Positions 30,162 through 61,052 of a DNA stretch of 64,000 nt are shown here, piece by piece. Within the stretch, counting starts at the first letter, position 1, and each line of letters begins with the position of its first letter. The position numbers and the translations under genes were made by a program. Source of the stretch: an uncultured Bacteroidales bacterium (GTDB lineage Bacteria > Bacteroidota > Bacteroidia > Bacteroidales > WCHB1-69). The stretch is taken from assembly GCA_900319925.1 (NCBI GenBank), contig ONQE01000005.1:16373-80372 (forward strand), given 5' to 3'. Below the pieces are notes generated by a model. That model did no database searches, was not told the DNA's origin, and was given only the letters and a program-made list of their open reading frames with translations.

Positions 30162-30171
30162 CATTATCAAC

Positions 30172-45008: not shown

Positions 45009-45057
45009 AACCTTTATATTTAAATTAAACTTCTTTCCAAGAACAGAAAACACGCGG

Positions 45058-45225: not shown

Positions 45226-45274
45226 AGTAACTGCTAACTGCTAACTACTAACTGCTAACTACTAACTGCTAACC
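45226..45274 (+). repeat. H2 heptamer array (TAACTGC/TAACTAC, 7 units)
   Basis: Reads agtaactgctaactgctaactactaactgctaactactaactgctaacc. It lies in the divergent region between the giant gene and the PPIase gene. Confidence 0.95.
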
Positions 45275-45284
45275 AAAAAAATTG

Positions 45285-45292
45285 TATCTTTG
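45285..45292 (+). promoter_or_regulatory. -7 box TATCTTTG for the PPIase gene
   Basis: Matches TAnnTTTG 26-32 nt upstream of the ATGs at 45318 and 45324. It directly follows the H2 array and an A-run. Confidence 0.55.
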
Positions 45293-45323
45293 CCGCTTGT
45301 TTATAAACTGACGGAAAATGTAT

Positions 45324-46064
45324 ATGAAAAAGACATTAGCGTACGTTATGGTGTTGAGTATCACGGTCTTGGCGGCCTGCTCCTCACCCAAGAAGGTCAA
45401 GACGGAAGAGGCCTCCGCCACCACCGGCGCCACCGAACAGACATCCCAAAACAAAGACAAAGATAACGACAAGATGACCCAAGTCCTACTGAAAACCACA
45501 TTCGGCGACATCGTGATCGCCCTCTACAACGACACGCCCCAGCACAAGGCCAACTTCGTGAAGCTGGTCAACGACAAGTTCTACGACGGCGTGCTCTTCC
45601 ACCGCATCATCAAGGGCTTCATGATCCAGGGCGGCGACCCCGACTCCAAGACCGCGAAACCCGGCCAGCGCCTCGGCTCCGGCGATGTCGGCTACACCAT
45701 CCCCGCCGAGTTCGTGCCCGCCCACATCCACAAACGCGGCGCCGTGGCCGCAGCCCGCATGGGCGACAACGTCAACCCCCAGAAGGCCTCCTCCGGATGC
45801 CAGTTCTACATCGTTGACGGCACCGTCTACGACAACGACAAGCTCAACATGCTCGCCATGCGCCTCGGCAAGACCTTCACCCCCGAACAGGTCCAGGCCT
45901 ACACCACCGACGGCGGCGCCCCCTTCCTCGACGGCGAATACACCGTCTTCGGCGAAGTCGTCCGCGGCATGACCGTCGTCGACAAGATCGCCGCCCAACA
46001 AAAAGACGGCGCCGACCGCCCCGTAGAAGACATCAAAATCATCAGCGCGACGATAATGGAGTGA
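45324..46064 (+). CDS. cyclophilin-type peptidyl-prolyl cis-trans isomerase lipoprotein
   Basis: Lipobox VLAACS. Motifs FHRIIKGFMIQGGDP and ...GCQFYIV...LDGEYTVFGEV. An alternative start is at 45318. Confidence 0.85.
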   Translation: MKKTLAYVMVLSITVLAACSSPKKVKTEEASATTGATEQTSQNKDKDNDKMTQVLLKTTFGDIVIALYNDTPQHKANFVKLVNDKFYDGVLFHRIIKGFMIQGGDPDSKTAKPGQRLGSGDVGYTIPAEFVPAHIHKRGAVAAARMGDNVNPQKASSGCQFYIVDGTVYDNDKLNMLAMRLGKTFTPEQVQAYTTDGGAPFLDGEYTVFGEVVRGMTVVDKIAAQQKDGADRPVEDIKIISATIME

Positions 46065-46182
46065 GATTTGTGATTTGTGATTTGTGATTTGTGACTTGTG
46101 ACTTGTGATTTGTGACTTGTGATTTGTGACTTGTGATTTGTGATTTGTGATTTGTGATTTGTGATTTGTGACTTGTGACTTG
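46064..46182 (-). repeat. H1 heptamer array in TTTGTGA orientation (TTTGTGA/CTTGTGA, about 17 units)
   Basis: Begins at the PPIase TGA (46062-64) and runs to 46182, where it abuts the H3 array. Confidence 0.95.
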
Positions 46183-46183
46183 C

Positions 46184-46232
46184 ACCCATAACCCATAACC
46201 CTTAACCCATAAACCTTAAACCTTAAACCATA
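46184..46232 (+). repeat. H3 heptamer array (ATAACCC/TTAACCC/TTAAACC, 7 units)
   Basis: Reads cacccataacccataacccttaacccataaaccttaaaccttaaaccataat and ends 2 nt before the pheS ATG at 46235. Confidence 0.95.
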
Positions 46233-46234
46233 AT

Positions 46235-47260
46235 ATGAAAAACATAGACGAAATAAGATCGGAAATAGAGAATTACAAAATCGAGAACGCTGAGACGCTG
46301 GAGCAGTTCAGGCTCCAGTTCCTGAGCAAGAAGAGCGAGATCCAGGCCCTGTTCGGCGAAATCAAGAACATGGCCCAGGAGAACCGCAAGGAGTTCGGTC
46401 AGCTGGTCAACGACCTGCGCGACATGGCCCAGAACCACTACAACGAGTTCAAGACCCGCATCGAGGCCGCCGCTGACAAGAAGGCCGACCTCATCCCCGA
46501 CATCACACGCCCCGCCGCGCAACGCGAGATCGGCTCCATGCACCCCATCTCCCTGATGATGAACGAGGTGCGCCGCATCTTCGAGGACATCGGCTTCTCC
46601 GCCGTCGAGGGCCCCGACATCGAGGACGACTGGCACGTCTTCACCGCCCTCAACTTCGCCGAGGAACACCCCGCCCGCGACATGCAGGACACCTTCTTCA
46701 TCGAGCTGCACCCCGACGTGCTGCTCCGCACGCACACCTCCTCGCTGCAGGTGCGCACCATGGAGAAGCAGCAGCCCCCGATTCGCGTGATCTGCCCCGG
46801 CCGCGTCTTCCGCAACGAGGCCATCACCTCCCGCGCCCACTGCATCTTCCACCAGGTGGAAGGCCTCTACGTGGCCGAGAAGGTCTCGTTTGCCGATATG
46901 AAGCAGACCCTGCTCTACTTCGCCCAACGGATGTTCGGCGACGAGGTCCGCATCCGTCTGCGCCCCTCCTACTTCCCCTTCACCGAGCCCTCCGCCGAGA
47001 TGGACGTCTCCTGCAACATCTGCGGCGGCGCCGGCTGCAACCTCTGCAAGCACACCGGCTGGGTCGAGATCCTCGGCTGCGGCATGGTCGACCCCAACGT
47101 CCTCGAAAACTGCGGCATCAACAGCAAGAAGTACAGCGGCTTCGCCTTCGGCCTCGGCATCGAACGCATGACCATGCTCAAATACCGCACCAACGACATC
47201 CGCCTCTACTTCGAAAACGACCTCCGCTTCCTCCAACAATTCAAACCCGCCACGAGGTAG
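46235..47260 (+). CDS. pheS: phenylalanine--tRNA ligase alpha subunit
   Basis: 341 aa. Class II motifs: HPARDMQDTFF, LRTHTSSLQVR, GRVFRNE, FHQVEG, FPFTEPS and GFAFGLGIERM. Confidence 0.92.
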   Translation: MKNIDEIRSEIENYKIENAETLEQFRLQFLSKKSEIQALFGEIKNMAQENRKEFGQLVNDLRDMAQNHYNEFKTRIEAAADKKADLIPDITRPAAQREIGSMHPISLMMNEVRRIFEDIGFSAVEGPDIEDDWHVFTALNFAEEHPARDMQDTFFIELHPDVLLRTHTSSLQVRTMEKQQPPIRVICPGRVFRNEAITSRAHCIFHQVEGLYVAEKVSFADMKQTLLYFAQRMFGDEVRIRLRPSYFPFTEPSAEMDVSCNICGGAGCNLCKHTGWVEILGCGMVDPNVLENCGINSKKYSGFAFGLGIERMTMLKYRTNDIRLYFENDLRFLQQFKPATR

Positions 47261-47306
47261 TTAGCAGTTAGTAGTTAGTAGTTAGTAGTTAGCAGTAAGC
47301 AGTAAC
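47257..47306 (-). repeat. H2 heptamer array in reverse orientation (GTTAGTA/GTTAGCA, 7 units)
   Basis: Reads gtagttagcagttagtagttagtagttagtagttagcagtaagcagtaac. The pheS TAG stop (47258-60) is in the first unit. Confidence 0.95.
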
Positions 47307-47334
47307 GATTGAAACACCATATATGAAAAATATT

Positions 47335-47373
47335 ATTCCTTAAGCAGCCCCGTTAGGGGCAAGAGCTTGGTAG
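47335..47373 (-). repeat. single inverted copy of the 52-bp REP-like unit seen at 13281-13436
   Basis: attccttaagcagccccgttaggggcaagagcttggtag matches the reverse complement of unit 2 at about 33 of 39 positions. It is followed by a second hairpin, cccagggt...accctggg (47375-47405). Confidence 0.75.
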
Positions 47374-47420
47374 CCCAGGGTAAGGCCGCAGGCCGCCACC
47401 CTGGGATGAATGATGGGATG

Positions 47421-47477
47421 ATAAACCCATAACCCATAAACCTTAAACCTTAAACCTTAAACTATAACCCATAAACC
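47421..47477 (+). repeat. H3 heptamer array (ATAAACC/ATAACCC/TTAAACC, about 8 units)
   Basis: Ends 3 nt before the ATG at 47481. Confidence 0.95.
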
Positions 47478-47480
47478 AAT

Positions 47481-50400
47481 ATGACCAAAACCCAAAAACG
47501 CATCAATAACCTGATCGGCCTGATCATCGGTATAGTGGCCTCCGCCGTCTATATCATGACTGCCGAGCCCACCGTCTCGTGGTGGGACTGCGGTGAGTAC
47601 ATCGCCACAACCTCGAAAATGCTCATCGGCCACCCGCCTGGAGCCCCCACGTTCCAGATCCTCGGCCGCATCGCCACGCTTTTCGCCGGCGGTGACGTCA
47701 CCAAGATGGCCTACTGCATCAACTGCATGTCGGCGGTATGCAGCGGCATGACCATCATGCTGCTCTACTTCAGCGTCGTGCGCCTGGCCCGCAAGCTCGT
47801 CGCCAGATGGGGCGAGCTCAACACCCCGCGCTTCGTCGCCGTCCTCGGCACCGCCCTTGTGGCCGCGCTGACCTACACCTTCTCCGACACCTTCTGGTTC
47901 TCCGCCGTCGAGGGTGAGGTCTATGCCATGTCGTCGTTCTTCACCGCCCTGGTCTTCTGGTGCATCCTGAAGTGGGACGAGGAGTACGAGCACCCGATGC
48001 CCAACGTCAACCCGAACCGTTGGATCGTGTTGATTGCCTACCTCGTAGGCCTCTCCATCGGCGTGCACCTCTTGAACTTGCTGACCCTTCCGGCCATCGG
48101 GCTCATCATCTACTACCGTCTCTCGCCCAAGGCCACCCATGCCGGTGCCGTGCTTGCCTTCGCCCTTATGTCGTTCGCGTTCGGCATCTTCTGCTCCCCG
48201 ATGTGGATGATCCTGATCTGGCTCTTCGTCACCACCCCGCTGCTCATCTACTGCGGCAAGAAGGGGGCGCTGACCTCCAAGGCCGAATGGGGCGTCACCC
48301 TGTCGCTCCTCGTGTCGGTCGCGCTGCTCGGCTTCATCCTCTGGGGTGTCGTGCCCCAGGTGGTCAACCTCTCCGGTAAGTTCGACCTCTTCTTCGTCAA
48401 CTCCCTCCACATGCCCTTCAACTCGGGTGTGATCTTCTTCTTCCTGCTCATCGCCGCCATCATCGGCTGGGGCATCTGGTACGGCCACAAGCGCAACAAG
48501 CCGGTCCTCTCCATCGGCGCCTTCTCCCTGATGATGCTCATCATCGGCTACTCCACCTTCATGACCCTGGTGATTCGCTCCAACGCCAACCCCACCATCG
48601 ACGAGAACAGCCCCGAGGACGCCGTCTCGCTGCTCTCCTACCTCAACCGCGAGCAGTACGGCTCCAACCCGCTGGTCTATGGCCAGAGCTACAACACCCG
48701 CGTGGTCCGGATGAAAGACGGCAGCCCGATCTACTACCGCGACGAGGACACCAAGCGTTACGAGGTCTCCGACCCGCGCAAGGGCAGCATCCCGGAATAC
48801 GACCCCAAAGGCTGTATGTTCTTCCCGCGTATGTGGTCGTCGGAGAAACGCTCGCAGTACATCGACTGGCTGAACAACCGCTATAATTCCGACAGTCCCT
48901 CCGACAAGGAGAACCGTCGCCTGCTGCAGCGCGGGGGTACGCCCACCTGGCAGCAGAACATCAAGTTCTTCCACACCTACCAGCTGGGCTATATGTACTG
49001 GCGCTACTTTATGTGGAACTTCGCGGGCCGTCAGAACGACCTGCAGGGCCACGGCGACTACCAGAACGGCAACTGGATCACCGGCATCGGCGCCATCGAC
49101 AACCCGATGGTCGGCAACCTCAAAGACCTGCCCACCTCCATCGAGCGCCCCGGCCACAACAAATACTACCTGCTCCCGCTGCTCTTGGGTCTCCTGGGCC
49201 TCGTCTTCCACACGAAGAACGACAGCAAGCACTCTTTTGTGGTCTTCATGCTCTTCGTGATGACGGGTATCGCCATCGCCATCTACCTGAATATGTATGC
49301 CTTCCAGCCGCGTGAGCGTGACTACGCCTTCGCCGCCTCCTTCTACGCCTTCGCGATGTGGGTCGGCTTCGGCGTGCTGGCCCTCTACCGCCTCTTCGAG
49401 AAGCTGCAGAGCAAGAGCGTGCAGACCGCCGGTGCGGTGCTCGTCACGCTGATCTGCGTCGGCTTGGTGCCCTGCGTGATGGCCAAGGAGAACTGGCACG
49501 ACCACGACCGCTCCGACCGTTACACGGCCTTGGCGGTGGCCAAGAACTACCTCGACTCCTGCGAGCCCAACGCCATCCTCTTCACCCTCGGCGACAACGA
49601 CACCTTCCCGCTCTGGTACGCCCAGGAGGTCGAAGGCTACCGTACCGACGTGCGCGTCTGCAACCTGATGCTGTTGAGCACCAGCTGGTACGTCGATCAG
49701 ATGAAGCGCAAAGCCTACGAGTCCGAGCCGCTGCCCATCTCCATGACCTGGGACCAGTACAAGGACGGCACCCGCGATGTCCTCTACCTCGAGGCCGCCA
49801 ACAACCAGTATATCGACTTGAAGGCCGTGGTGGACTACGTGAAGTCGCCCACCTTCGACCATACACGGAGCCTCTTCTTGATGAAGCAGAACAGCGGCTA
49901 CCCGGTCAACGGACGCCCCATCCCCGCCAGCTTCTCGCTGCCGGTCGATAAGGCGAAGGTGTTGGCCAACGGCACCGTCGCCCCCGAGGATTCCGCCCTC
50001 GTGGTGGACAGACTGATGTGGAATATGAACACCAACGGCATGAACGCCCTCACCAAGGCCTACATCGTGATGATGGACATCCTGGCGAACAACAACTGGG
50101 AGCGCCCCATCTACTACGCTTCTACCGCCGGTTCGGAGGCCTACCTCGGCTTGGAGAACTATTTCCAGTTGGAGGGTTTCGCCTACCGTTTGGTGCCTAT
50201 CCGCAACACTTCGCGCTCCTACGGGGAGACTGGCCGCATCAACTCCGCCCGTCTCTACCACACCTTGATGGAGACCTTCGACGACCATAGCCGTCTGGAT
50301 CCCGTCAAGAACCCCAACGCCCAGCATACGCCGTACGAGTTCGCTTGGGGCGGCTTCAACGACCCGAGTCTCTACCATAGCGAGGACAACACCCGTCTGG

Positions 50401-51128
50401 TGCCCCTCATGCGTCGTTTGTACGCCCGTCTCGCCGAGCAGCTCATCACCGAAGGGGAGCCCGACAAGGCCCTCAAGGTGCTGGTGCACGGCAACGAGGT
50501 GCTGCCCGACTGCAACTTCCCGTACGTCTCCGTGATGTCCAGCATCTACGGCTACACGCACGGCTGTATGAGCTATGTCGAGGACTTCTTCCGCGTCCAT
50601 TCGCCCGAAGCCGACAAGAAGGGTATGGAGATGGCCAACCGGATTTGGGACGAGCAGGTGGAGCTCTTCAACTGGTACAACAACTGTGACGAGCGCACCC
50701 TCGACTACCGCAGTGGCGACATCCACTACGACTTCCTGTTCCTGCACTATATGATGAACAACATCAAATACCCCGACAACAGCCTGGCCCAGCGTTACAA
50801 AGAGCTGAAGATCGACAATGTCGCGGCGAATTATGCCAAGTCGTTGCAGGGCAGCATTGCTGCGCAGCTGCGCAAGGCCGAGCCTGACCAGCAGGCCATC
50901 GCCGGCAGTCTCCAGGAGCTGCACCAGATGCAGGAGATTGCCAAGATGATCGGTGACAATGCCACCGCCCAGAAGATCGAGGGCATCGCCGCCGCGCAGA
51001 TCGACATGATGGGCAGCCTCTCCCCCGATATGGCCGCCGCCTTCCGCCAGTTCTACTACAGCATGGACAGACGCGAGGCCCCCGCCGAGGAAGAGACCCC
51101 CACCGAAACCCCCTCCGATAACCAATAA
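47481..51128 (+). CDS. DUF2723-family large membrane protein (glycosyltransferase-C-like N-terminal domain)
   Basis: 1215 aa. N-terminal motif TVSWWDCGEYIATTSKMLIGHPPGAP, multiple TMs, then a soluble helical-repeat C-terminus. Assigned from memory. Confidence 0.7.
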   Translation: MTKTQKRINNLIGLIIGIVASAVYIMTAEPTVSWWDCGEYIATTSKMLIGHPPGAPTFQILGRIATLFAGGDVTKMAYCINCMSAVCSGMTIMLLYFSVVRLARKLVARWGELNTPRFVAVLGTALVAALTYTFSDTFWFSAVEGEVYAMSSFFTALVFWCILKWDEEYEHPMPNVNPNRWIVLIAYLVGLSIGVHLLNLLTLPAIGLIIYYRLSPKATHAGAVLAFALMSFAFGIFCSPMWMILIWLFVTTPLLIYCGKKGALTSKAEWGVTLSLLVSVALLGFILWGVVPQVVNLSGKFDLFFVNSLHMPFNSGVIFFFLLIAAIIGWGIWYGHKRNKPVLSIGAFSLMMLIIGYSTFMTLVIRSNANPTIDENSPEDAVSLLSYLNREQYGSNPLVYGQSYNTRVVRMKDGSPIYYRDEDTKRYEVSDPRKGSIPEYDPKGCMFFPRMWSSEKRSQYIDWLNNRYNSDSPSDKENRRLLQRGGTPTWQQNIKFFHTYQLGYMYWRYFMWNFAGRQNDLQGHGDYQNGNWITGIGAIDNPMVGNLKDLPTSIERPGHNKYYLLPLLLGLLGLVFHTKNDSKHSFVVFMLFVMTGIAIAIYLNMYAFQPRERDYAFAASFYAFAMWVGFGVLALYRLFEKLQSKSVQTAGAVLVTLICVGLVPCVMAKENWHDHDRSDRYTALAVAKNYLDSCEPNAILFTLGDNDTFPLWYAQEVEGYRTDVRVCNLMLLSTSWYVDQMKRKAYESEPLPISMTWDQYKDGTRDVLYLEAANNQYIDLKAVVDYVKSPTFDHTRSLFLMKQNSGYPVNGRPIPASFSLPVDKAKVLANGTVAPEDSALVVDRLMWNMNTNGMNALTKAYIVMMDILANNNWERPIYYASTAGSEAYLGLENYFQLEGFAYRLVPIRNTSRSYGETGRINSARLYHTLMETFDDHSRLDPVKNPNAQHTPYEFAWGGFNDPSLYHSEDNTRLVPLMRRLYARLAEQLITEGEPDKALKVLVHGNEVLPDCNFPYVSVMSSIYGYTHGCMSYVEDFFRVHSPEADKKGMEMANRIWDEQVELFNWYNNCDERTLDYRSGDIHYDFLFLHYMMNNIKYPDNSLAQRYKELKIDNVAANYAKSLQGSIAAQLRKAEPDQQAIAGSLQELHQMQEIAKMIGDNATAQKIEGIAAAQIDMMGSLSPDMAAAFRQFYYSMDRREAPAEEETPTETPSDNQ

Positions 51129-51132
51129 CCCC

Positions 51133-51160
51133 GTAGAGACGCGCCCCAGCGCGTCTCTAC
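51133..51160 (+). terminator. perfect 12-bp stem hairpin after the DUF2723 gene
   Basis: gtagagacgcgc-ccca-gcgcgtctctac starts 5 nt after the stop and is followed by tt. The H3 array begins right after it. Confidence 0.55.
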
Positions 51161-51164
51161 TTCC

Positions 51165-51269
51165 ATAACCCCTAACCCTTAACCCCTAACCCTTAACCCC
51201 TAACCCTTAACCCTTAACCCTTAACCCCTAACCCTTAACCCTTAACCCTTAACCCTTAAACCATAACCC
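51165..51269 (+). repeat. H3 array, CCC-rich variant (CTAACCC/TTAACCC/CCTAACC, about 15 units)
   Basis: Reads ataacccctaacccttaacccctaaccc...cttaaaccataaccca. It ends 2 nt before the elbB ATG at 51272. Almost every unit has CCC or CCCC. Confidence 0.95.
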
Positions 51270-51271
51270 AA

Positions 51272-51913
51272 ATGAAATTCGCAGTAATATTGTGCGGCTG
51301 CGGCACACTGGACGGCAGCGAAATCCACGAATCGGTGATGACCCTTTTGGCCATCGACCGCAACGGCGGCGAGTATCAGATCTTCGCCCCCGACGACTGG
51401 CAGTACCACGTCGTGAACCACGTCACGGGGCAACCCATGGAAGAGCGGCGCAACATGTTGTTGGAGGCGGCGCGTATCGCCCGTGGCAACGTCAAGCCCC
51501 TCGAGGAGTGCCGTGTCGAGGACTTCGACGCGGTGATCTTCCCCGGCGGCAACGGTTCCGCCAAGAACCTCTTCACCTACGCTTACGAGGGTGCGGGCTG
51601 CACCGTGCGTGAGGATGTGGCGGCGGTCATCCGCGCCTTCCACAGTGCCGGCAAGCCCATCGGTGCCCTCTGCATTGCCCCGGTGATGATTGCCAAGGTT
51701 CTCGGCGACGTCACCGTGACCGTCGGCAGCGACCCCGGCACCGTCCGCAACGTCGAGAGTTTCGGTTCCAAGCACGAGGTCACCGTCCAGAAGGGTGTCT
51801 GCTGCGACAAGGCCAACAAGGTCTTCACCACCCCCTGCTACATGCTCCCCGCCCGCATCTCCGACATCGCCGACTGCGCCGATAACCTCGTGCGAGCGAT
51901 GGTTATGGGTTAA
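51272..51913 (+). CDS. elbB: isoprenoid biosynthesis glyoxalase ElbB (DJ-1/PfpI superfamily)
   Basis: Motifs MKFAVILCGCGTLDGSEIHE, FDAVIFPGGNG, GALCIAP and TTPCYM. Length is 213 aa. Confidence 0.8.
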   Translation: MKFAVILCGCGTLDGSEIHESVMTLLAIDRNGGEYQIFAPDDWQYHVVNHVTGQPMEERRNMLLEAARIARGNVKPLEECRVEDFDAVIFPGGNGSAKNLFTYAYEGAGCTVREDVAAVIRAFHSAGKPIGALCIAPVMIAKVLGDVTVTVGSDPGTVRNVESFGSKHEVTVQKGVCCDKANKVFTTPCYMLPARISDIADCADNLVRAMVMG

Positions 51914-51946
51914 TGGTTATGGGTTAATGGTTATAGGTTAATGGGA
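51898..51946 (-). repeat. H3 array in reverse orientation (GGTTATG/GGTTAAT, about 7 units)
   Basis: Reads gatggttatgggttaatggttatgggttaatggttataggttaatggg. It contains both the elbB TAA (51911-13) and the TAA of the convergent four-helix-bundle gene (51938-40). Confidence 0.9.
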
Positions 51947-52321
51947 GGGCTGTAGGGCAGTGGAGAAGTGACGTCGTAGACCTGAAAGCATTTTAGCGAC
52001 GACGATAAATTGTGGTCTAAGTGCTTCTAACGAGGCTTCTGTGATGAAACCGAGGTCTAATGCAGTTTGTAGTTCACTGAATACCTCCATTAAAGACCCG
52101 AATGCGATTCCAATAAAGTAGGTCTTCTCTTTTATTGAAAATCTACCGCTTCCTTCCGCAATATTGGCGGTAATTGAGGCAGCAGCTCTCCTTATTTGGG
52201 AACTAAGTGCGAATTTTTCTTCAGGAGGTAATTGTTTTACAAGTTGATATACTTCCTTTACCAGTTTTCTGGATTCAGCATAAACTTCTAACTTTTCAAA
52301 TGAGAATCTTTCGTTGTCCAT
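51938..52321 (-). CDS. four-helix-bundle protein (23S rRNA intervening-sequence protein family)
   Basis: Motifs FEKLEVYAESRKLVKEVY, ...SQIRRAAASITANIAEGSGR and ...FIGIAFGSLMEV. Visibly AT-rich compared with the flanks. Confidence 0.75.
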   Translation of the reverse strand: MDNERFSFEKLEVYAESRKLVKEVYQLVKQLPPEEKFALSSQIRRAAASITANIAEGSGRFSIKEKTYFIGIAFGSLMEVFSELQTALDLGFITEASLEALRPQFIVVAKMLSGLRRHFSTALQPSH

Positions 52322-52417
52322 AAATAATTATATTTTGTTTGATTTATTCTATTAACGAATCAATAACGAAAATATTGCATGCTAATAAAAAAATCCCAAC
52401 AATAACCCTTCCATCTT

Positions 52418-52482
52418 CATAACCTACTAACCCATAACCCATAACCTACAACCTACAATCCATAACCCATAACCCATAACCC
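52418..52482 (+). repeat. H3 array (ATAACCC/ATAACCT/ACAACCT, about 9 units)
   Basis: Reads cataacctactaacccataacccataacctacaacctacaatccataacccataacccataaccc. It ends 3 nt before the aroK ATG at 52486. Confidence 0.9.
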
Positions 52483-52485
52483 AAA

Positions 52486-52944
52486 ATGACCACCGTCCTC
52501 ATCGGCTTCCCCGGTTCCGGGAAGAGCACCGTCGGCAAGCAGCTTGCCGAGCGGTTGGGTATGGCGTTCATCGACCTCGATGTGTATATCGAGGAGAAGT
52601 ACCACACGGCCATTCCCCTGCTCTTCGAGAAGTATGGGGAGGCGGCCTTCCGGACGTTGGAGTACGCCGCCCTCTGCGAGGTCTTGGAGCGCGAGGACGT
52701 CGTCATCGCCACCGGCGGCGGCGCCCCCTGCCACGCCGACGCCATGGACCGCATCAACGCCCGCGCCGAGAGCATCTACCTCCGCCTCTCCGAAGACCAG
52801 CTCGTCGAGCGCCTCCGCCAATCCAAGAAGAAGCGCCCCCTCACCGACTCCCTCTCCCTCCCCGCCCTCCGCCAATACGTCCACGACACCCTCGCCCTCC
52901 GCGAACCCTTCTACCTCAAAGCCCACACCGTATGGGATTTGTGA
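52486..52944 (+). CDS. aroK: shikimate kinase (short C-terminus)
   Basis: P-loop GFPGSGKST, then ...FIDLD and ...ATGGGAP. Length is 152 aa. The last codons and the TGA come from the H1-type array. Confidence 0.8.
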   Translation: MTTVLIGFPGSGKSTVGKQLAERLGMAFIDLDVYIEEKYHTAIPLLFEKYGEAAFRTLEYAALCEVLEREDVVIATGGGAPCHADAMDRINARAESIYLRLSEDQLVERLRQSKKKRPLTDSLSLPALRQYVHDTLALREPFYLKAHTVWDL

Positions 52945-53107
52945 TTGGTGACTTGTGATTGGTGACTTGTGATTGGTGATTAGTGACTTGTGATTGGTGA
53001 TTGGTGACTTGTGATTGGTGATTGGTGACTTGTGATTGGTGATTGGTGACATATCCCGCAGGCATTAACTACTAACTACTAACTGCTAACTGCTAACTAC
53101 TAACTAA
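52936..53107 (+). repeat. composite element: [TTGTGAT/TGGTGAC]n (52936-53050), 15-bp linker, [TAACTAC/TAACTGC]n (53066-53107)
   Basis: Same array order as the elements at 61053-61258 and 61691-61866. The linker ends in ggcat, as in the other two. Confidence 0.9.
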
Positions 53108-53146
53108 ATTTTTTTTCCCTCCCCCCGTCCATTGTTGTATTTTTTG

Positions 53147-53154
53147 TATATTTG
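53147..53154 (+). promoter_or_regulatory. -7 box TATATTTG, candidate promoter of the capsule-export operon with a leader of about 190 nt
   Basis: Matches TAnnTTTG 200 nt upstream of the ATG at 53355. The leader contains hairpins at 53159-53184 and 53204-53231. Confidence 0.45.
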
Positions 53155-53293
53155 CCGCGTGGAAAAATCTGTAAAATTTTCCACGGGAGGGCGGCTTACG
53201 CCACTGGAATCAGTGGACAACCGGATTCCAGAAACCCTTACAGCTCATGGGATCTCCTCCTTACGCACCTCCTTGATAATCAGGGAGGAATAG

Positions 53294-53323
53294 AGGATTT
53301 TGTCTCCTGAAAAACAAAATCCT
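53294..53323 (+). terminator. terminator-like hairpin inside the leader (possible attenuator)
   Basis: aggattttgt-N10-acaaaatcct is followed by tttt and lies about 30 nt upstream of the Wza-like start. Confidence 0.4.
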
Positions 53324-53354
53324 TTTCGCTCGAGTTTAATTAAAATCCATCATT

Positions 53355-54173
53355 ATGAGAAAGAAACTCATTCCATTCATTGCGGTGCTTCTGCTCATGG
53401 CCTCCTGTTCCATGAATAAGAAAATCACCTATTTTCAGGATGTCATCGTGTCATCCGACTCGACGGTTGCTGAGAAATTACCCCCGGATATCACCCTCCG
53501 GCCGGAGGACAAGGTTTCCATTATCGTCAACAGCAAAGATCCAGAACTCTCCGCCCTTTTCAATTTACCTTATGTGTCTCGATCTATCGGTTCAAGTTCT
53601 GATAATGAAATCACCCGTGGCGTGTCAAGTTATGTAGTAAGAAGAGATGGCACTATTGACTTCCCTGTACTCGGGAGTGTCAAGGTGGCTGGTCTGTCCC
53701 GTGATGAAGTGGCCGCTTACATCAAGAATCAACTCATTTCGCAGAACTTGGTCAACGATCCGGTGGTGACCGTTGAGTTCGTGAATCTTCAATACTCGGT
53801 TATGGGAGAGGTAAGGGCCCCTGGTAACTATAAGATTACTCGCGACCGCGTTACCCTGCTCGAGGCCATCTCCCAGGCCGGCGATTTGAACATCAGTGGT
53901 AAGCGTGACAACGTGCTCGTGATTCGCGCCGACTCCACTGGCAAGCTCTACGCCTACCAAGTCGATATGCGCTCCTTTGAAGACGTGGTCAATTCCCCCG
54001 TCTATTACATCCACCAGAACGACTACATCTACGTGGAGCCCAATAAGAAACGGGCCAACGAATCCACTGTCAACGCCAACACCGTGAGTTCCGCCTCCTT
54101 CTGGATCTCCATCTCTTCCCTGTTAGCCTCCCTCGCCTCCACCGCCACTTTGATTTTTGTCCGACTCAGATAG
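53355..54173 (+). CDS. polysaccharide export outer-membrane protein (Wza-like, Poly_export plus SLBB)
   Basis: Lipobox LLMASCS. Motifs RPEDKVSIIV, ...Y.V..DG.I.FP.LG.V.VAG and ...LEAISQAGD. Confidence 0.8.
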   Translation: MRKKLIPFIAVLLLMASCSMNKKITYFQDVIVSSDSTVAEKLPPDITLRPEDKVSIIVNSKDPELSALFNLPYVSRSIGSSSDNEITRGVSSYVVRRDGTIDFPVLGSVKVAGLSRDEVAAYIKNQLISQNLVNDPVVTVEFVNLQYSVMGEVRAPGNYKITRDRVTLLEAISQAGDLNISGKRDNVLVIRADSTGKLYAYQVDMRSFEDVVNSPVYYIHQNDYIYVEPNKKRANESTVNANTVSSASFWISISSLLASLASTATLIFVRLR

Positions 54174-54208
54174 ATTAGTTCATTTCTTTAACTATAGAAA
54201 GAAATATT

Positions 54209-56683
54209 ATGCAGAAAAATACAAATAATACAGAACAAGCTGTCAGCTCTGCGCAGATCAAGAACCTATTTTACCAATGCTTGGCCAAATGGTATTGGTT
54301 CGTTATTTCCGTGGGCATTGTGCTCTTTGGTGCAGTCTTCTATCTGCTGAAGACCACCCCAGTCTATACCCGCACTGCCAAATTACTGGTCAAGTCCGAT
54401 AGTAAAGGCCGTTCAACGGGTGATATAAGCGATTTTTCCGACTTGGGTGTCTTTGGCTCCAGTGTGAATGTGAACAATGAGCTCATGACGATGAAGTCTC
54501 TCGATGTGATGACAGAAGTGGTGCGCCGTCTCCATTTGGACATGAACTACAGCCAGGACGGCCTCTTCCGCCCGGTGGTGCTCTACGACAAATCCCTGCC
54601 CGTGACTGCCATCTTGGTGGATGCGCCGGACAACATGACTGCTTCCTTTGATCTCAAGTTGGACAAGGGTGCTGTCACGCTGACCGATTTTGTGCGTGGG
54701 GATGAGGATTTGAGTGGTAAAGTCAGTGCGAAGTTTGGTGACACGGTGAAAACACCAATCGGTCTCATCTGCATCGAGAAAACCGATTTTTACAAGAATA
54801 AAAAATATGACAAGATTCATATCCGTCGCTCTACTATCAATGGGACGGCTCGCAGCTATGCCTCCCGGGTTAACGTCGGACTCGCCGGCAAGAATACCGA
54901 AGTGCTTGCACTTTTCGTGGAGGATATCAACAAGAGCCGTGGCGATGATATTCTCAATATGCTCATTGCGGTTTATAACGGTAATTGGCTCAAAGACAAA
55001 AACCAGATTACCGTCAGCACCTCCATGTTCATCAACGACCGTCTCCAAGTCATCGAGAAGGAGTTGGGAAACGTCGATAGCGATATTTCCTCCTATAAGA
55101 GCGAGAACCTTTTGCCCGATGTGGATGCGGTGTCCAGCATGTACCTCAACCAAAACCGAGAGGCTAACACCCGTATTAACGAGCTCAATAACCAGATATC
55201 GATTACCCGTTATGTTCGCAATTACCTGACCAACGAGACGGATAACAACCAACTCCTGCCTGTCAACACCGGTATCAGCAACGGTCATATCGAGAGCCAG
55301 ATTGCGAACTACAACACGATGATGCTCCGTCGCAATGGCTTGGTGGCCAACAGCAGTGAGCAGAACCCCCTTGTACTTGATTTGGATGAGAAGCTGAAGG
55401 CTATGCGTCACGCCATCCTCACCTCCATTGACAACCAGTTGGCCACGCTCAACACGCAGTTGGCTAACTTTCAGGGCACCGAGCGGCTCATCAATGCCCG
55501 TTTGGCCGCCAACCCCAAGCAGGCCAACTACCTACTCTCGGTGGAACGTCAGCAGAAGGTCAAGGAGTCACTGTACCTCTTCCTCCTGCAGAAACGTGAG
55601 GAGAACGAGCTTTCCCAGGCCTTCACGGCCTACAACACCCGCGTGATTGAGCATCCCAACGGCAGTAGCTCCCCCACCAAACCGCGCAAGACAGTGGTTT
55701 TGTTGGCCGCCCTCATCATCGGTATCGCCATTCCCATCGCCATCATCATCATTAAAGAATATCTCAACACCACAGTGCGCGGCCGAAAGGATCTGGAGAA
55801 GCTCACGATGCCCTTCATCGGCGAGATTCCGCTCTCCATCAGTGCCGAGGAGGAGAAGAAGAAAATCAAAGAGAAACGCAAGATGCTCCGCCGTAGCAAG
55901 CGCAAAGGGGTGGAACCCGAACAGGAGAAGGGCTTCGGCGGCGTCATCGTCGTCAAGCACGGCAACCGCAACGCCATCAACGAAGCCTTCCGTGTGCTCC
56001 GTACCAATATCGAGTTCATGACCAAGGGCAACGAGTCCAACGTCATCATGCTCACCTCCTTCAACCCGGGCTCTGGCAAGTCGTTCATCACGATGAATAC
56101 CGCCCTCACCCTGGCCATCAAGAACCGGAAGGTGCTGCTGATCGACGGCGACCTGCGTCACGCCTCCCTCTCCGCCTACATCTTCTCGCCCAAGCGCGGC
56201 CTGGCCAACTTCCTCGGCGGCCAGGAGAAGGATGTCCATGACGTCATCGTGAAGAGCGAGGAGTATCCCACTCTCAGCTATCTGCCGGTGGGCACCATCC
56301 CGCCCAACCCCACGGAATTGCTCGAGACCGAGCTCTTCGGCGAAACCATCAATATGCTGCGTAAGGAGTATGACTACGTCTTCATCGACTGTCCGCCTAT
56401 CGACATCGTCGCCGACCCGCAGATTATCAGCAACTACGTCGATCGTACCATCTTCGTGGTGCGTGTGGGTCTCTTGGAGCGCAGCATGCTGCCGGAACTC
56501 GAGGAACTCCACACCAGCCACAAGTACAACAACCTCTGCCTCATCCTCAACGGCGGTACCGGTGGCGACGGCCGCTACGGCTACAGCCGCTATGGCTACA
56601 ACTACAAGTACGGCTACAAATACGGCTATGGCCACAACTACTACGGCCACAGCTATTACCACAAAGAGGACGACGAACAATAA
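54209..56683 (+). CDS. polysaccharide chain-length determinant / tyrosine autokinase (Wzc-like)
   Basis: Wzz domain with two TMs. Walker A SFNPGSGKSF. C-terminal Tyr cluster YGYSRYGYNYKYGYKYGYGHNYYGHSYY. Confidence 0.85.
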   Translation: MQKNTNNTEQAVSSAQIKNLFYQCLAKWYWFVISVGIVLFGAVFYLLKTTPVYTRTAKLLVKSDSKGRSTGDISDFSDLGVFGSSVNVNNELMTMKSLDVMTEVVRRLHLDMNYSQDGLFRPVVLYDKSLPVTAILVDAPDNMTASFDLKLDKGAVTLTDFVRGDEDLSGKVSAKFGDTVKTPIGLICIEKTDFYKNKKYDKIHIRRSTINGTARSYASRVNVGLAGKNTEVLALFVEDINKSRGDDILNMLIAVYNGNWLKDKNQITVSTSMFINDRLQVIEKELGNVDSDISSYKSENLLPDVDAVSSMYLNQNREANTRINELNNQISITRYVRNYLTNETDNNQLLPVNTGISNGHIESQIANYNTMMLRRNGLVANSSEQNPLVLDLDEKLKAMRHAILTSIDNQLATLNTQLANFQGTERLINARLAANPKQANYLLSVERQQKVKESLYLFLLQKREENELSQAFTAYNTRVIEHPNGSSSPTKPRKTVVLLAALIIGIAIPIAIIIIKEYLNTTVRGRKDLEKLTMPFIGEIPLSISAEEEKKKIKEKRKMLRRSKRKGVEPEQEKGFGGVIVVKHGNRNAINEAFRVLRTNIEFMTKGNESNVIMLTSFNPGSGKSFITMNTALTLAIKNRKVLLIDGDLRHASLSAYIFSPKRGLANFLGGQEKDVHDVIVKSEEYPTLSYLPVGTIPPNPTELLETELFGETINMLRKEYDYVFIDCPPIDIVADPQIISNYVDRTIFVVRVGLLERSMLPELEELHTSHKYNNLCLILNGGTGGDGRYGYSRYGYNYKYGYKYGYGHNYYGHSYYHKEDDEQ

Positions 56684-56784
56684 CCCCTAACCCCCAACCT
56701 CTAACCCAGACTCCTTAAATCCTAACCCTTAAACCCTAAACCATAACCCTTAACCCTTAAACCTTAACCCTTAAACCTTAAACC
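56681..56784 (+). repeat. H3 array (degenerate CTAACCC/TTAACCC/TTAAACC, about 14 units)
   Basis: Starts at the Wzc-like TAA (56681-83) and ends 1 nt before the TTG at 56786. Confidence 0.9.
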
Positions 56785-56785
56785 A

Positions 56786-57484
56786 TTGTTCCGCAAATAC
56801 CCCATCGACTCCCAGCTGACCGGCTTCACCGACCACCACTCGCACATCCTCTTCGGGGTGGACGACGGCGTGAAGACCCTCGAAACCTCCCTGAAAGTGC
56901 TCCATCGCTACGAGGAACTTGGCGTCGCCGAAGTGTGGTGTACGCCCCACATCATGGAGGACATCCCCAACACCCCGGAGAGCCTGCGTGCACGCTTCGC
57001 CGAGCTGCAGGCCGCCTACCAGGGTCCCGTCAAACTCCACCTCGCCGCCGAGAACATGATGGACCAGCTCTTCGAGGAGCGCCTCGAGGCCAATGACCTC
57101 CTCCCCCTCGGCGAGACCGGCAACCATCTCCTCGTGGAGACCTCCTACTTCACCCCGCCGATGGGGATGAAGGACATCCTCCGGCGTATCAAGTCCAAGG
57201 GCTACTTCCCCGTGCTCGCCCATCCTGAGCGCTACGTCTATATGGACAAGGACGACTACCGGGAGCTCAAGGGCATGGAGATCCTCTTCCAGGTCAACCT
57301 CTCCTCCCTCGCTGGCGGCTATGGCCCCGAGGCCGAGGACAAGTCGCACTGGCTCCTCAAGAAGGGGTTCTACGACCTCGCCGGCTCCGACCTCCACTCC
57401 CTCCGCAACACCCAGTTCTGGTCCAAACCCCTCCGCGAGTCCGTGATCAACCCGCTTAGAAAGATACTGGCGAGTTCGATTTAG
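56786..57484 (+). CDS. CpsB/YwqE-type (PHP-fold) tyrosine-protein phosphatase
   Basis: Motifs DHHSHILFGVDDG, ...CTPH and ...LAHPERY. The only in-frame start after the upstream stop (TAA 56780-82) is TTG at 56786. Confidence 0.7.
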   Translation: MFRKYPIDSQLTGFTDHHSHILFGVDDGVKTLETSLKVLHRYEELGVAEVWCTPHIMEDIPNTPESLRARFAELQAAYQGPVKLHLAAENMMDQLFEERLEANDLLPLGETGNHLLVETSYFTPPMGMKDILRRIKSKGYFPVLAHPERYVYMDKDDYRELKGMEILFQVNLSSLAGGYGPEAEDKSHWLLKKGFYDLAGSDLHSLRNTQFWSKPLRESVINPLRKILASSI

Positions 57485-57522
57485 CGTTGCCTGCGGAAAG
57501 AAAAGAACACACATTATAAGGC

Positions 57523-57603
57523 ATCACCCACCACCTACCACTCACAAATCACCACTCACAAGTCACAAATCACAATTCACAAGTCACAAATCACAAATCA
57601 CCA
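57523..57603 (+). repeat. H1 array (TCACAAA/TCACAAG/TCACCAC, about 11 units, degenerate at the 5' end)
   Basis: Reads atcacccaccacctaccactcacaaatcaccactcacaagtcacaaatcacaattcacaagtcacaaatcacaaatcacc. It is followed by aaaaaa and the rfbB ATG at 57609. Confidence 0.9.
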
Positions 57604-57608
57604 AAAAA

Positions 57609-58659
57609 ATGAGAAACATCATCATCACCGGCGGAGCCGGATTCATCGGCAGCCATGTGGTACGGCTGTTCATAAACAAGTACCCCGAATACAACATCAT
57701 CAACATCGACAAACTCACCTACGCCGGGAACCTCGCCAACCTCAAGGATGTCGAGGGCAAGCCCAATTACAAGTTCGTCAAGATGGACATCTGCGACTTC
57801 GAGGGCATCCATCGGCTGATGCAGGACGAGCATATCGACGGCGTCATCCACCTCGCCGCCGAGAGCCACGTGGACCGCTCCATCAAGGACCCCTTCACCT
57901 TCGCGCAGACCAACGTGATGGTCCACCGATGAGGTCTATGGCGCCCTGGAGATGACCCATCCCGACGGCATCGAGCCCCCCTTCACCACGAAGGCCTCCT
58001 CTGGCGAGCACCACCTGGCCTACGGCGAGAAGTTCTTCACCGAGGACCTCAAATACCAGCCCCACAGTCCCTACAGCGCCGCCAAGGCCGCCAGCGACCA
58101 CTTCGTGCGGGCCTTCCACGACACCTACGGGATGCCCACCGTGGTCACCAACTGCTCGAACAACTACGGTCCGTACCAGTTCCCCGAGAAGCTCATCCCC
58201 CTGTTCATCAACAATATCCGCCACCGCAAGCCGCTGCCCGTCTATGGAAAGGGCGAGAACGTGCGCGACTGGCTCTATGTCGAGGACCACGCCCGCGCCA
58301 TCGACCTCATCTTCCATAAAGGCAAGGTGGGCGACACCTACAACATCGGCGGCTTCAACGAGTGGAAGAACATCGACATCATCAAGGTGCTGATCAACAC
58401 GGTGGACCGGATGCTGGGCCGTCCCGAAGGTGCCGACATGGATCTGATCACCTACGTCACGGACCGCGCCGGCCACGACATGCGCTACGCCATCGATTCC
58501 ACCAAGCTGCAGCGCGAGCTGGGCTGGGAGCCGTCGCTCCAGTTCGAGGAGGGCATCGAGAAGACCGTCCGCTGGTACCTCGACAACCAAGACTGGATGG
58601 ACAACGTCACCTCCGGTGACTACATGAAGTATTACGAAGATATGTACGCGAACCGGTAG
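57609..58659 (+). pseudogene. rfbB: dTDP-glucose 4,6-dehydratase, disrupted by an internal deletion and frameshift
   Basis: The N-terminal ORF 57609..57932 (GGAGFIGSH...AAESHVDRS...TNVM) hits a stop. The +1 frame continues STDEVYGALE...YSAAKAASDH... to 58659. About 28 codons that I expect between TNVMG and STDEVYG are missing. Confidence 0.8.
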
Positions 58660-59542: not shown

Positions 59543-60604
<1,062 letters not shown>

Positions 60605-61045: not shown

Positions 61046-61052
61046 TTTGTTT

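Follow-up and report, generated by a model that had tools for sequence, protein, structure and literature searches.

The spacers between genes in a 64-kb stretch of DNA from an uncultured rumen/gut Bacteroidales bacterium (the window: 64,000 nucleotides (nt) of contig ONQE01000005.1) are filled by tandem arrays with a 7-nt period, and the stop codons of eight genes of the window lie in register inside such an array. We conclude, with a probability of about 0.6, that these arrays are lineage-specific, hypermutable heptanucleotide simple sequence repeats (SSRs), of the long SSR (LSSR) type, which are filtered by selection at coding boundaries. Their capacity to act as three-frame stop cassettes, put forward in an initial annotation of the sequence, is real and explains why arrays on gene ends are harmless. 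It is best seen as a consequence of tandem heptamers and purifying selection, and as one half of a pattern in which polar arrays fill spacers from stop to start.

At least 22 period-7 arrays were detected in the window (G+C content 55%) with Tandem Repeats Finder, in agreement with our own periodicity scan, i.e. 3.4 arrays per 10 kb. They were sorted into the families H1 (TTTGTGA, with variants TTGTGAC, TTGGTGA, TTAGTGA and TCACAGC), H2 (TAACTAC and TAACTGC) and H3 (TAACCCT, TAAACCT, TAACCCA and TAACCCC). TTTGTGA carries one stop and its complement TCACAAA is open, while H2 TAACTAC and H3 TAACCCT carry a stop on each strand. This is the stop content first described, except that H3 had been taken as closed on both strands throughout: the reverse strand of the variant TAACCCA is open. 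The arrays recur at the same places in three independent assemblies and are therefore not an assembly artefact. The species is not among the GTDB representative genomes (best pheS identity 85%). Its PheS protein was found residue for residue on two ENA metagenome contigs, and the nearest species-level genomes are metagenome-assembled genomes from goat, yak, cattle and horse (73-85% pheS identity). The clade-wide counts given below were taken from ~250 kb of clade relatives.

Stop codons in the arrays and the ends of the proteins

The stop codons of at least ten genes had been placed in, or at the first unit of, an array. Each of these gene ends was compared base by base with its +7 shift. Eight stops lie in period-7 register inside an array, those of the genes for the resistance-nodulation-division (RND) pump, the methyltransferase, the giant protein, pheS, elbB, the four-helix protein, aroK and Wzc, at a depth of 10 nt for the methyltransferase, 12 nt for elbB and 9 nt for aroK. 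The stop of the peptidyl-prolyl isomerase (PPIase) gene is a one-base variant of the first unit (TGAGATT versus TGTGATT). The claim holds for these nine and not for the genes at 61256 and 61865, which are only adjacent: their stops (at 2 nt and 1-5 nt, respectively), like that of the steroid-dehydrogenase gene, precede their arrays by 1-5 nt. The stop of the TMEM260-like gene (51126-51128) lies in a two-unit H3-like stretch, 38 nt upstream of the array at 51166..51270, with a hairpin in between. In total, 8 stops of 13 were in register, compared to at most 1/7 under random phase.

Adjacency alone does not account for this. In a placement test, we used 33 array-bearing spacers from the window and from clade relatives with called genes, and the null was obtained by placing the array blocks randomly within their spacers. 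Of the 32 stop-type boundaries, 14 had a stop that was touched or overlapped by an array (gap ≤0), where 1.5 would be expected (P<1e-5). The observation that stops fall in arrays is thus confirmed, and exceeds what proximity would give. The arrays concerned are the following.

7304..7375, − strand: H1 array, TTTGTGA in gene sense; holds the TGA stop of the RND pump gene (7372-7374).
13439..13519, − strand: H1 array, TTTGTGA/GTTGTGA in gene sense, 4 nt past the native TAG of a steroid-dehydrogenase-family gene (13524-14333).
16218..16351, − strand: H3 array, AGGGTTA/AGGTTTA in gene sense; holds the methyltransferase stop (16339-16341).
30163..30221, − strand: H2 array, GTAGTTA in gene sense; holds the TAG stop (30216-30218) of the giant gene, which encodes a 4945-amino-acid (aa) type IX secretion system (T9SS) protein.
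45228..45273, + strand: H2 array TAACTGC/TAACTAC, 6.6 units, A/C-rich on the + strand, in the divergent spacer beside the giant gene and 43 nt upstream of the PPIase ATG (45318).
46062..46182, + strand: PPIase stop TGA (46062-46064), then a post-stop H1 array TTTGTGA/TTGTGAC of ~17 units (Tandem Repeats Finder 46065-46182); 81% G+T, with a 2-unit indel relative to strain L001.
46184..46233, + strand: pre-start H3 array ACCCATA/AACCTTA, 7 units, G-free, 1 nt before the pheS ATG (46235).
47257..47305, + strand: H2 array in reverse orientation, GTAGTTA/GCAGTTA (Tandem Repeats Finder 47257-47303); holds the pheS stop TAG (47258-47260) in register.
47421..47499, + strand: H3 array ATAAACC/TAAACCT, up to the start of the TMEM260-like gene (ATG 47481), and slightly into the gene according to Tandem Repeats Finder.
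51166..51270, + strand: H3 array TAACCCT, 15 units (Tandem Repeats Finder 51166-51269), 1 nt before the elbB ATG (51272).
51899..51944, + strand: H3 array in reverse orientation with a 14-nt periodicity (ATGGTTATGGGTTA, 3.3 copies); holds two convergent stops, the TAA of elbB (51911-51913) and, on the − strand, the TAA of the four-helix gene (51938-51940).
52418..52483, + strand: H3 array CATAACC, G-free, 2 nt before the aroK ATG (52486).
52936..53050, + strand: H1-like array TTGTGAT/TGGTGAC (Tandem Repeats Finder 52939-53050) with the aroK stop (52942-52944) inside; 3-unit indel relative to strain L002.
53066..53106, + strand: H2 array TAACTAC/TAACTGC, 5.9 units, 15 nt past the H1-like array; adjoins no gene end.
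56681..56785, + strand: H3 array TAACCCC/CCTTAAA, extending from the Wzc stop TAA (56681-56683), which it includes, to the cpsB TTG (56786).
57525..57601, + strand: H1 array in the stop-free sense TCACAAA/TCACAAG, A/C-rich (Tandem Repeats Finder 57542-57601), 7 nt before the ATG of the rfbB-like gene (57609); begins 57 nt past the cpsB stop, which no array adjoins.
60294..60357, + strand: in-frame array TCACAGC/TCACAAA inside galE, encoding TAHSSQITAHSSQITNHKS.
61052..61253, − strand: composite element with arrays at 61052-61169 and 61200-61253. In − sense, a GTAGTTA H2 array lies 2 nt past the stop of the gene 61256-61612, followed by a 32-nt hairpin spacer and a TCACAAG H1 array 19 nt before the amidase start (61045).
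61693..61863, − strand: second copy of the composite element (H2 array, spacer, H1 array), after the stop of the gene 61865-62059; arrays at 61693-61800 and 61834-61863.

The composite element, seen twice in the window, was also seen in relative L203 (~7949-8139), downstream of small genes in an amidase-containing cluster. Its conserved spacer of ~32 nt between the H1 and H2 arrays contains a small hairpin, TTATGCCATGACATCAACGATGAAGTGGGCAT.

In comparison with orthologues and Pfam models, 7 of the 9 checkable proteins proved to have their full length or a tail that varies no more than usual: PPIase, PheS, Wzc, the steroid dehydrogenase, the RND pump, the methyltransferase and the T9SS domain of the giant protein. 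PheS ends in ..KPATR* where relatives have ..KAATR*, with equal C-terminal length in nine relatives; the Wzc tail and its TAA are identical to those of relative L205; and the steroid dehydrogenase ends in ..FPFVY* instead of ..FPFIY*. The tails of the methyltransferase (273 aa, compared to 272-278 aa in relatives) and of the RND pump (1056 aa, compared to 1058 and 1062 aa) are variable, and the last three codons of the former (VKV) are array-coded. Pfam models matched to their last position in the RND pump, the steroid dehydrogenase, the four-helix protein and the T9SS sorting domain of the giant gene. PPIase ends in ..SATIME*, compared to ..SATILE* or similar in seven relatives. Its stop, at the conserved codon position, is a TGA as in the H1 unit, while it is TAA in 7 of 7 relatives; the array appears to have swapped the stop codon while the protein length stayed the same.

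Two genes are different. In elbB, the native stop and the last 3-4 codons are gone: the protein ends in ..AMVMG* where genus relatives have ..AMLQVM*, and MVMG is array-encoded. AroK had been suspected to end early, and so it does: it has 152 aa, while its counterparts measure 161-169 aa within the genus and ~172-176 aa in relatives further afield, so that 9-24 aa are gone, and the Pfam SKI (shikimate kinase) match stops at position 137 of 159. The terminal D-L-stop of AroK is array sequence. A residual 3′ fragment of aroK behind the arrays was looked for and ruled out, as no remnant is found downstream and the arrays run straight into the conserved wza promoter region.

Arrays therefore do supply the terminating codon at gene ends, as elbB, aroK and the PPIase TGA illustrate. 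The related proposal, that arrays are tolerated at gene ends because they terminate translation by themselves, finds partial support: it fits elbB and aroK, whose ends were eaten and closed by the array, while the majority of the proteins checked are full length. A general C-terminal truncation of the affected proteins is not found: AroK alone is clearly truncated, and the ElbB tail is replaced. Copy-number changes between near-identical strains leave the upstream proteins unaltered. At the 5′ side, the TTG start of cpsB does lie at the array edge as first noted, but it falls at the position of the ATG of relatives, therefore the N-terminus is not shortened.

For annotation, this means that hypermutable repeats set gene ends, and sometimes starts, in this clade, and that automated annotation and orthologue alignment should expect so. 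The repeat-derived, strain-variable parts are C-terminal tails (aroK, elbB, and cpsB in L203), the cpsB TTG start and internal loops of GalE.

Start codons, strand polarity and stop content of the units

Start codons are approached as closely as stops. Only 1-2 nt are left between an H3 array and the start codon at pheS, the TMEM260-like gene, elbB and aroK (all ATG) and at cpsB (TTG); start-hugging arrays in relatives use other units (GTAAACA, TGAAACC, CCGTAAA, GTCTAAA, TAACTAC). In the same placement test, a gap of ≤5 nt was found at 15 of 34 start-type boundaries, compared to 8.4 expected (P=3e-4). The orientation of arrays was then scored on a sample of 72 arrays (250 kb, ten loci), 64 of which are non-coding:

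Beside a stop only, n=22: 18 G+T-rich in gene sense (p=0.004).
Beside a start only, n=18: 18/18 A+C-rich, many of them G-free (p=8e-6).
Single array spanning stop to start, n=8: 4 G+T-rich, 4 A+C-rich.
Intergenic, away from gene ends, n=16: not scored.
Intragenic, n=8: not scored.

Polarity is tied to gene sense on both DNA strands, and every family is used in both orientations. H1 reads TTTGTGA behind the RND pump, steroid-dehydrogenase, PPIase and aroK genes, and TCACAAA before the rfbB-like and amidase genes. H2 reads GTAGTTA behind pheS, the giant gene, and the genes at 61256 and 61865, and TAACTAC before starts; H3 reads AGGGTTA behind the methyltransferase gene and elbB, and TAACCCT before starts. 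In relatives, units that are open in the sense direction also lie directly behind stops: GTTTACT in L209 (gap −1) and L208 (gap 7 nt), and AGGTTTC in L205. A model centred on stops overlooks both the equally close apposition to starts and this rule of G/T after the stop and A/C before the start.

The junction of pre-start arrays is A-rich (..AAACCAA ATG AA..). Bacteroidetes initiation regions, which lack Shine-Dalgarno sequences, favour adenines and low structure (Baez et al. 2019, PMC6847099). RNA folding of three array-bearing spacers (z of −0.9, −1.6 and −3.0) gave no convincing hairpin or terminator; the H1-like and H2 pair behind aroK forms a modest G-U-rich stem, the sole one among the folded spacers. 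A gathering-threshold Rfam scan of the whole window gave 0 matches, and a promoter and terminator scan, run with the sigma-70 consensus, which is not the Bacteroidetes one, found no excess over shuffled sequences.

Polarity of this kind could betray a function. The arrays might be positively selected punctuation of operons at the RNA level, in a setting without Shine-Dalgarno sequences: A/C-rich arrays would serve as unstructured leaders for the loading of ribosomes or of proteins such as S1 or Rho, G/U-rich arrays behind stops as spacers that resist Rho loading or bind another factor, and expression would be adjusted through copy number. C-rich, G-poor, unstructured RNA is the hallmark of sites at which Rho loads. 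The very strong polarity relative to gene sense on both DNA strands argues for such a role, together with the fact that pre-start arrays stop 0-5 nt before the ATG with an A-rich junction, as Bacteroidetes initiation prefers (PMC6847099). The same junctions are moreover occupied in several species while the units change, which fits a constraint on composition and not on sequence; and the polarity is the same in Xanthomonas and Nostoc, while TAACTGA repeats lie just before starts in Beggiatoaceae and Flexibacter. However, close relatives (83-85% protein identity) do without arrays in these operons, whose spacers there measure 6-90 nt, so arrays are not needed. Their lengths differ between strains with no sign of constraint, and 4 of the 8 stop-to-start arrays are G/T-rich directly beside the start. 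We consider punctuation possible, and on balance doubtful. A broader form of the idea is more speculative still: polar arrays would be functional and rapidly tunable operon punctuation in Shine-Dalgarno-blind Bacteroidales, with A/C before starts for ribosome, Rho or S1 loading, G/U behind stops for transcript continuity and slippage as an expression rheostat, and the same process inside genes would yield loops of heptad peptides and possibly a galE phase switch for surface polysaccharide precursors.

The stop content of the units was examined next to their polarity. Among the intergenic unit families, 22 of 23 carry a stop on at least one strand, compared to 49% of random non-array intergenic heptamers from the same loci (p=2e-6). 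When the letters of each unit were permuted with composition fixed, 17.1 of 23 were expected with a stop against the 22 observed (P=0.003). Since 17.1 of 23 are already expected from an A/T-containing composition, the enrichment is mostly compositional.

These figures bear on the idea, also raised in the initial annotation, that arrays were selected as three-frame stop cassettes, or translational insulators, catching read-through and frameshifted ribosomes. The raw enrichment is in its favour. So is the orientation of H1: at the four gene ends of the window that an H1 array adjoins (RND pump, steroid dehydrogenase, PPIase, aroK), the array is always TGA-oriented, and among the metagenome loci listed, 20 H1 arrays at ≤16 nt from a gene end are in TGA sense against ~5 in open sense at ≤12 nt, counts that are partly usable as ORF calling is ambiguous in high-GC contigs. 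The enrichment mostly vanishes once composition is fixed, however, and the H1 orientation is a special case of the general G/T-after-stop rule, which is also valid for units with a stop on both strands or on neither and for the sense-open units GTTTACT and AGGTTTC. Arrays have 5-17 units where three would suffice, and starts are hugged equally. Stop-bearing arrays do bring an in-frame stop every 21 nt after the primary stop, which makes them fail-safe stops in a trivial sense, but a study of such extra stops reports no evidence of selection for them in bacteria (PMC6764699). We therefore find selection as insulators unlikely.

Turnover between species, arrays inside genes and neighbouring loci

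The arrays are peculiar to one lineage. Other Bacteroidota had 8 arrays in 80 loci, or 1.23 Mb (0.065 per 10 kb), which is ~50-fold below the window per kb, compared to 0.5-6.6 arrays per 10 kb in clade relatives (79-88% GalE identity); one relative free of the GalE insert had none. A relative with few arrays, L210, does have mutL. Relatives at 83% SppA identity have the gene order of the window from 7 to 17 kb, and their methyltransferase and RND junctions are array-free. The steroid-dehydrogenase junction is array-free in L212 and has just short heptamer-like repeats in L213 and L214. The spacers of the PPIase-pheS-TMEM260-elbB-aroK segment are only 6-90 nt long in L003-L005.

Over 21 kb, two strains differ from the window by one SNP (single-nucleotide polymorphism) and a 14-nt or 21-nt indel within H1 arrays, so that arrays are the fastest-changing sequence of the region. 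Unit-sized indels between otherwise identical strains show growth and shrinkage by replication slippage. Between species, the elbB-aroK and cpsB-rfbB junctions have different units while the composition type is kept. At the Wzc-cpsB junction, the window array and a run of three TAACCCA units in L205 start from the same TAA; TAACCC is a frequent post-stop context and could seed H3 arrays. Seeding from the gene's own stop is attractive for Wzc. As the sole origin of arrays it is ruled out, since PPIase has an H1 TGA where orthologues have TAA, and H1 arrays lie behind unrelated C-termini.

Arrays also lie inside genes. The reading frame of galE continues through its array as ..SSQITAHSSQITNHKS..; when compared with solved GalE structures, the array adds 14 aa, equal to 6 units, to a loop. 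It had been presented as the single intragenic array, in the one stop-free orientation. The orientation is right, and a second, tiny intragenic array was found at 21740-21756. The orientation is no evidence in itself, being a logical necessity within a coding sequence, as already written by MacGregor 2015. In the best 120 GalE homologues, this loop has 10 aa when insert-free and 15-90 aa otherwise. A period of 7 residues is common among the inserts, although the units behind it differ (QITNHKS, PSTLNPQ, RLKTEDL, SHVTRHT, KSQDSRF); PSTLNPQ is the product of (TCAACCC)n, an H3 unit in which the TAA is altered. A 96%-identical homologue (P0001) is 7 aa longer, that is 3 units. Besides the loop after HVAALQCF, some of the homologues P0018, P0117, P0102, P0090, P0074 and P0016 have a second heptad site after RVEEII, for instance PLNLKPSTLNPQPSTLDPQPSTLNPQPSTLNLR, and one of them has a heptad-like C-terminal extension, EREEVRSKKVEVRSKREEGRSMK.

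An antisense TGA was present in 5 of 6 clade intragenic arrays. Intragenic arrays share their pool of units with the intergenic ones, but have the open strand in sense. The same is seen at a larger scale: (TTTGTGA)4 occurs in at least 120 contigs of JGI metagenomes, with G+C contents from 21% to 69% and from very different organisms, and in 42 among those listed the array lies within an ORF of ≥600 nt, always in TCACAAA sense. Spanning ORFs that are rich in Arg, in contigs with 63-68% GC, look spurious. Several others are clearly real proteins that carry a KSQITNHKSQI insert, among them CarB, SecA, LepA, GuaA, NifS/IscS, UppS, a GH3 glycosidase and a helicase. The KSQITNHKSQI loci L097, L174, L160, L139, L164, L113, L180, L105 and L095 belong to unrelated organisms of low to mid GC, and several have further heptad-peptide inserts; no mention of peptides of this type turned up in the literature searched. 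Seven-nucleotide repeats thus feed new peptide segments into conserved enzymes, in the GalE loop as well as in CarB, SecA, LepA, GuaA and UppS (KSQITNH inserts).

In the explanation that we favour, hypermutable SSRs filtered by selection, heptanucleotide repeats would have proliferated in one clade of uncultured rumen/gut Bacteroidales, to make up most of its intergenic spacer DNA today. Arrays grow and shrink by replication slippage, as the unit-sized indels show, unit types turn over quickly between species, and selection at coding boundaries would decide where arrays persist and which way round. At 3′ ends, an array may erode the spacer, then the native stop and a few dispensable C-terminal codons, as seen in elbB and aroK, in an order of events that we infer. 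The reading frame would be closed at once, as almost any A/T-containing heptamer gives TAA, TAG or TGA in three frames within 21 nt. Stops inside arrays would hence be a by-product and not the purpose of the arrays. At 5′ ends, only the A/C-rich, G-poor orientation is found beside starts, presumably because initiation requires an A-rich unstructured region and ignores Shine-Dalgarno sequences; the G/T-rich complement is the orientation found behind stops. Inside genes, arrays survive only when open in the sense direction, in multiples of three units and in tolerant surface loops, as GalE shows.

Several points weigh against this explanation. A modest stop enrichment persists after the control for composition (P=0.003). 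The strict polarity, 18/18 before starts, shows that orientation is selected; a functional element would show the same, so that mere tolerance does not follow. The explanation does not account for the preference for G/T-rich arrays behind stops. Slippage explains growth and not the presence of the same H1, H2 and H3 families at many unrelated junctions, which would require a spreading mechanism, nor does it explain how the ancestral TAA of PPIase came to be a TGA without any shift of the stop position. Finally, all statistics come from ~250 kb in two syntenic neighbourhoods of related genomes, and junctions in related species may not be fully independent.

Some loci suggest a link to mobile DNA. 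The four-helix gene (23S_rRNA_IVP or bAvd-like; 51938-52321, − strand) lies between elbB and aroK, is absent from this place in all relatives examined, and is flanked by inverted H3 arrays (51899-51944 and 52418-52483). Genes of the 23S_rRNA_IVP family adjoin or overlap arrays in L206 (11300-11734) and L208 (6408-6668 and 8814-9215). A 522-aa gene (11702-13270, − strand) is found between the steroid-dehydrogenase gene and the RND operon, where L212 and L213 have a 40-54 nt spacer alone; it is therefore a lineage-specific insertion, beside the 13439-13519 array and 52-nt repeats. Arrays could be footprints or terminal structures of mobile DNA, such as the insertion of the four-helix gene. But the majority of arrays separate housekeeping genes in conserved synteny, at junctions free of any insertion; neither genes for a transposase or integrase nor terminal inverted repeats other than the arrays were found, and Rehm 2015 (PMC4692102) likewise found no association with mobile elements. 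This origin seems to us very improbable.

Other features of the region are listed here for completeness. Directly behind the TMEM260-like stop, a G+C-rich hairpin, GTAGAGACGCGCCCCAGCGCGTCTCTAC (51129-51165), interrupts H3-like sequence and is kept in L205, L206 and L209; it could be a terminator or an element resembling repetitive extragenic palindromes (REP). Upstream of wza, the motif TTTTTGTATATTTGCCGCG (53135-53165; ~4285-4305 in L204, ~4295-4315 in L206) is kept across species, while the sequence from aroK to the motif differs. It fits the Bacteroidetes −7 promoter consensus, TAnnTTTG. The gene for an rfbB-like dTDP-glucose 4,6-dehydratase is disrupted and consists of two ORFs (57609-57932 and 57952-58659), with an internal deletion of ~70 codons and a frame change near 57921; it is intact in relatives (376-377 aa). 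The giant fibronectin-type-III/T9SS gene (30216-45053, − strand) encodes 4945 aa, compared to 5093 and 4923 aa on two ENA contigs of near-identical strains, and its internal repeats show ~76-89% identity in BLAST self-hits. Repeats of longer period lie at 13280-13440, 29594-29743, 58662-58778, 59383-59491 and 63659-63997; they comprise repeats of 52 nt x3, 71 nt x2, 42 nt x2 and 34 nt x3, perfect 9-nt arrays (CACAGAAAT / ATTTCTGTG) and a cluster of 9-11-nt repeats near the window end (TTTCGCCCC, TGCGAAAACAA).

Comparison with known heptamer systems

Part of these properties is already known for similar repeats: three-frame stops and stop overlap (MacGregor 2015), and polarity (Rehm 2015). TAACTGA heptamer repeats occur in marine Beggiatoaceae, Cyanobacteria and five Bacteroidetes, most of them just upstream of starts and in the forward, TAA-bearing orientation, in which they give stops in three frames; 13 overlap the stop of the upstream gene. 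Reverse repeats are translated within ORFs, mostly at protein ends. Gramella and Aequorivita have other heptamer repeats that share spacers with TAACTGA, and close relatives of the bearers have shorter, repeat-free spacers (MacGregor 2015, PMC4679880). The window arrays resemble this system in their mostly intergenic 7-nt tandem units, their position a few nt before starts, their three-frame stops, their overlap with upstream stops and the shorter, repeat-free spacers of close relatives. No tandem TAACTGA was found in the window with one mismatch allowed, the nearest units, TAACTAC and TAACTGC, differing at 1-2 positions. In contrast to the TAACTGA repeats, there are at least 3 families here (23 across the clade), arrays are much denser and longer (up to 17 units), they have a G/T-rich partner behind stops, and inserts lie in internal loops of housekeeping enzymes instead of mainly at protein ends.

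A resemblance of another kind concerns H1. The ribbon-helix-helix (RHH) protein omega of plasmid pSM19035 binds 5′-WATCACW-3′ heptads, 7-10 per plasmid promoter region and in mixed orientation (PMC9499535). Like these, H1 arrays consist of contiguous 7-bp units, and TCACAAA in another register is AATCACA, which fits the consensus, as does the variant AATCACT; the likeness is one of sequence. H1 arrays might thus be sites for an RHH protein like omega/ParB, as operators or centromere-like elements, the more so as at least 4 contiguous heptads are a functional unit in pSM19035 and (TTTGTGA)4 is spread over the at least 120 metagenome contigs of very different organisms mentioned above. Only one family of three fits, however; AAGTCAC, AATCACC and all H2 and H3 units do not. 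The arrays are all-direct, gene-polar and sometimes coding, unlike a DNA operator, and lie in chromosomal operon spacers, not in promoters of plasmid par or copy-control genes. No par genes were seen among the gene families of the 64-kb window, where ten proteins were scanned and no RHH-directed search was made. We give this explanation hardly any credit.

Contingency loci are phase-variable SSR tracts in surface-polysaccharide genes of Haemophilus and Neisseria (PMC2651432). The galE tract is similar in that it is prone to slippage, has a unit that is not a multiple of three, so that a one-unit change would shift the frame, and lies in a gene for the supply of surface-polysaccharide precursors. 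It differs by its position mid-gene in a loop, with all of the best 120 homologues in frame. No sign of galE phase variation was found, the sole length variant seen differing by 3 units, which is a weak test as protein databases would not show out-of-frame alleles. The intergenic 5′ and 3′ arrays of the window cannot switch their neighbours by frameshift. The repeats of Borg extrachromosomal elements are reported to be lineage-specific, fast-evolving and of independent origins, and to create new repetitive or disordered protein segments when they fall in genes (Schoelmerich et al. 2023, PMC9879509). The GalE-loop arrays likewise make new protein segments, but Borgs are archaeal and extrachromosomal, with variable unit lengths instead of a fixed 7 nt.

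The closest class is that of the LSSRs and short tandemly repeated repetitive (STRR) sequences, as the window arrays show the head-to-tail 7-nt period, over-representation in a lineage, slippage instability and polarity near ORF ends that define it. The STRR heptanucleotides of heterocystous cyanobacteria, described by Mazel et al. in 1990, reportedly comprise several families amplified at many sites, mostly intergenic. The present arrays similarly form several heptanucleotide families at many chromosomal sites of one lineage, and differ in phylum and units. Among G-rich heptameric SSRs, GGGAATC in Xanthomonas and GGGGA(T/C)T in Nostoc PCC 7120 favour spacers of co-directional ORFs and are untied to mobile elements or surface-structure genes. 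Their G-rich strand is the coding strand 0-50 bp after stops, including in repeats that overlap the stop, while 0-50 bp before starts the C-rich strand is the coding one and the G-rich strand is non-coding (Rehm et al. 2015, PMC4692102). The window arrays are equally lineage-specific and intergenic, with the same strand polarity. Unlike the G-rich SSRs, which prefer a length of four units and can form G-quadruplexes, the proposed basis of their effect, they have broad lengths, and TTTGTGA, GTAGTTA and TAAACCT cannot form such structures: GGG runs are found only on the complementary strand of TAACCCT-type H3 arrays, with none in H1, H2 or TAAACCT, and the arrays as a group fall outside the G-quadruplex-forming class. 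The polarity rule, earlier seen only in Xanthomonas and Nostoc, is hereby extended to gut/rumen Bacteroidales and to many unrelated unit sequences, which suggests that composition or RNA is constrained, and not that a sequence-specific factor is at work. As a natural set of G-free leaders of variable length, these arrays make it possible to test what an initiation region needs in a phylum whose initiation is independent of Shine-Dalgarno sequences.

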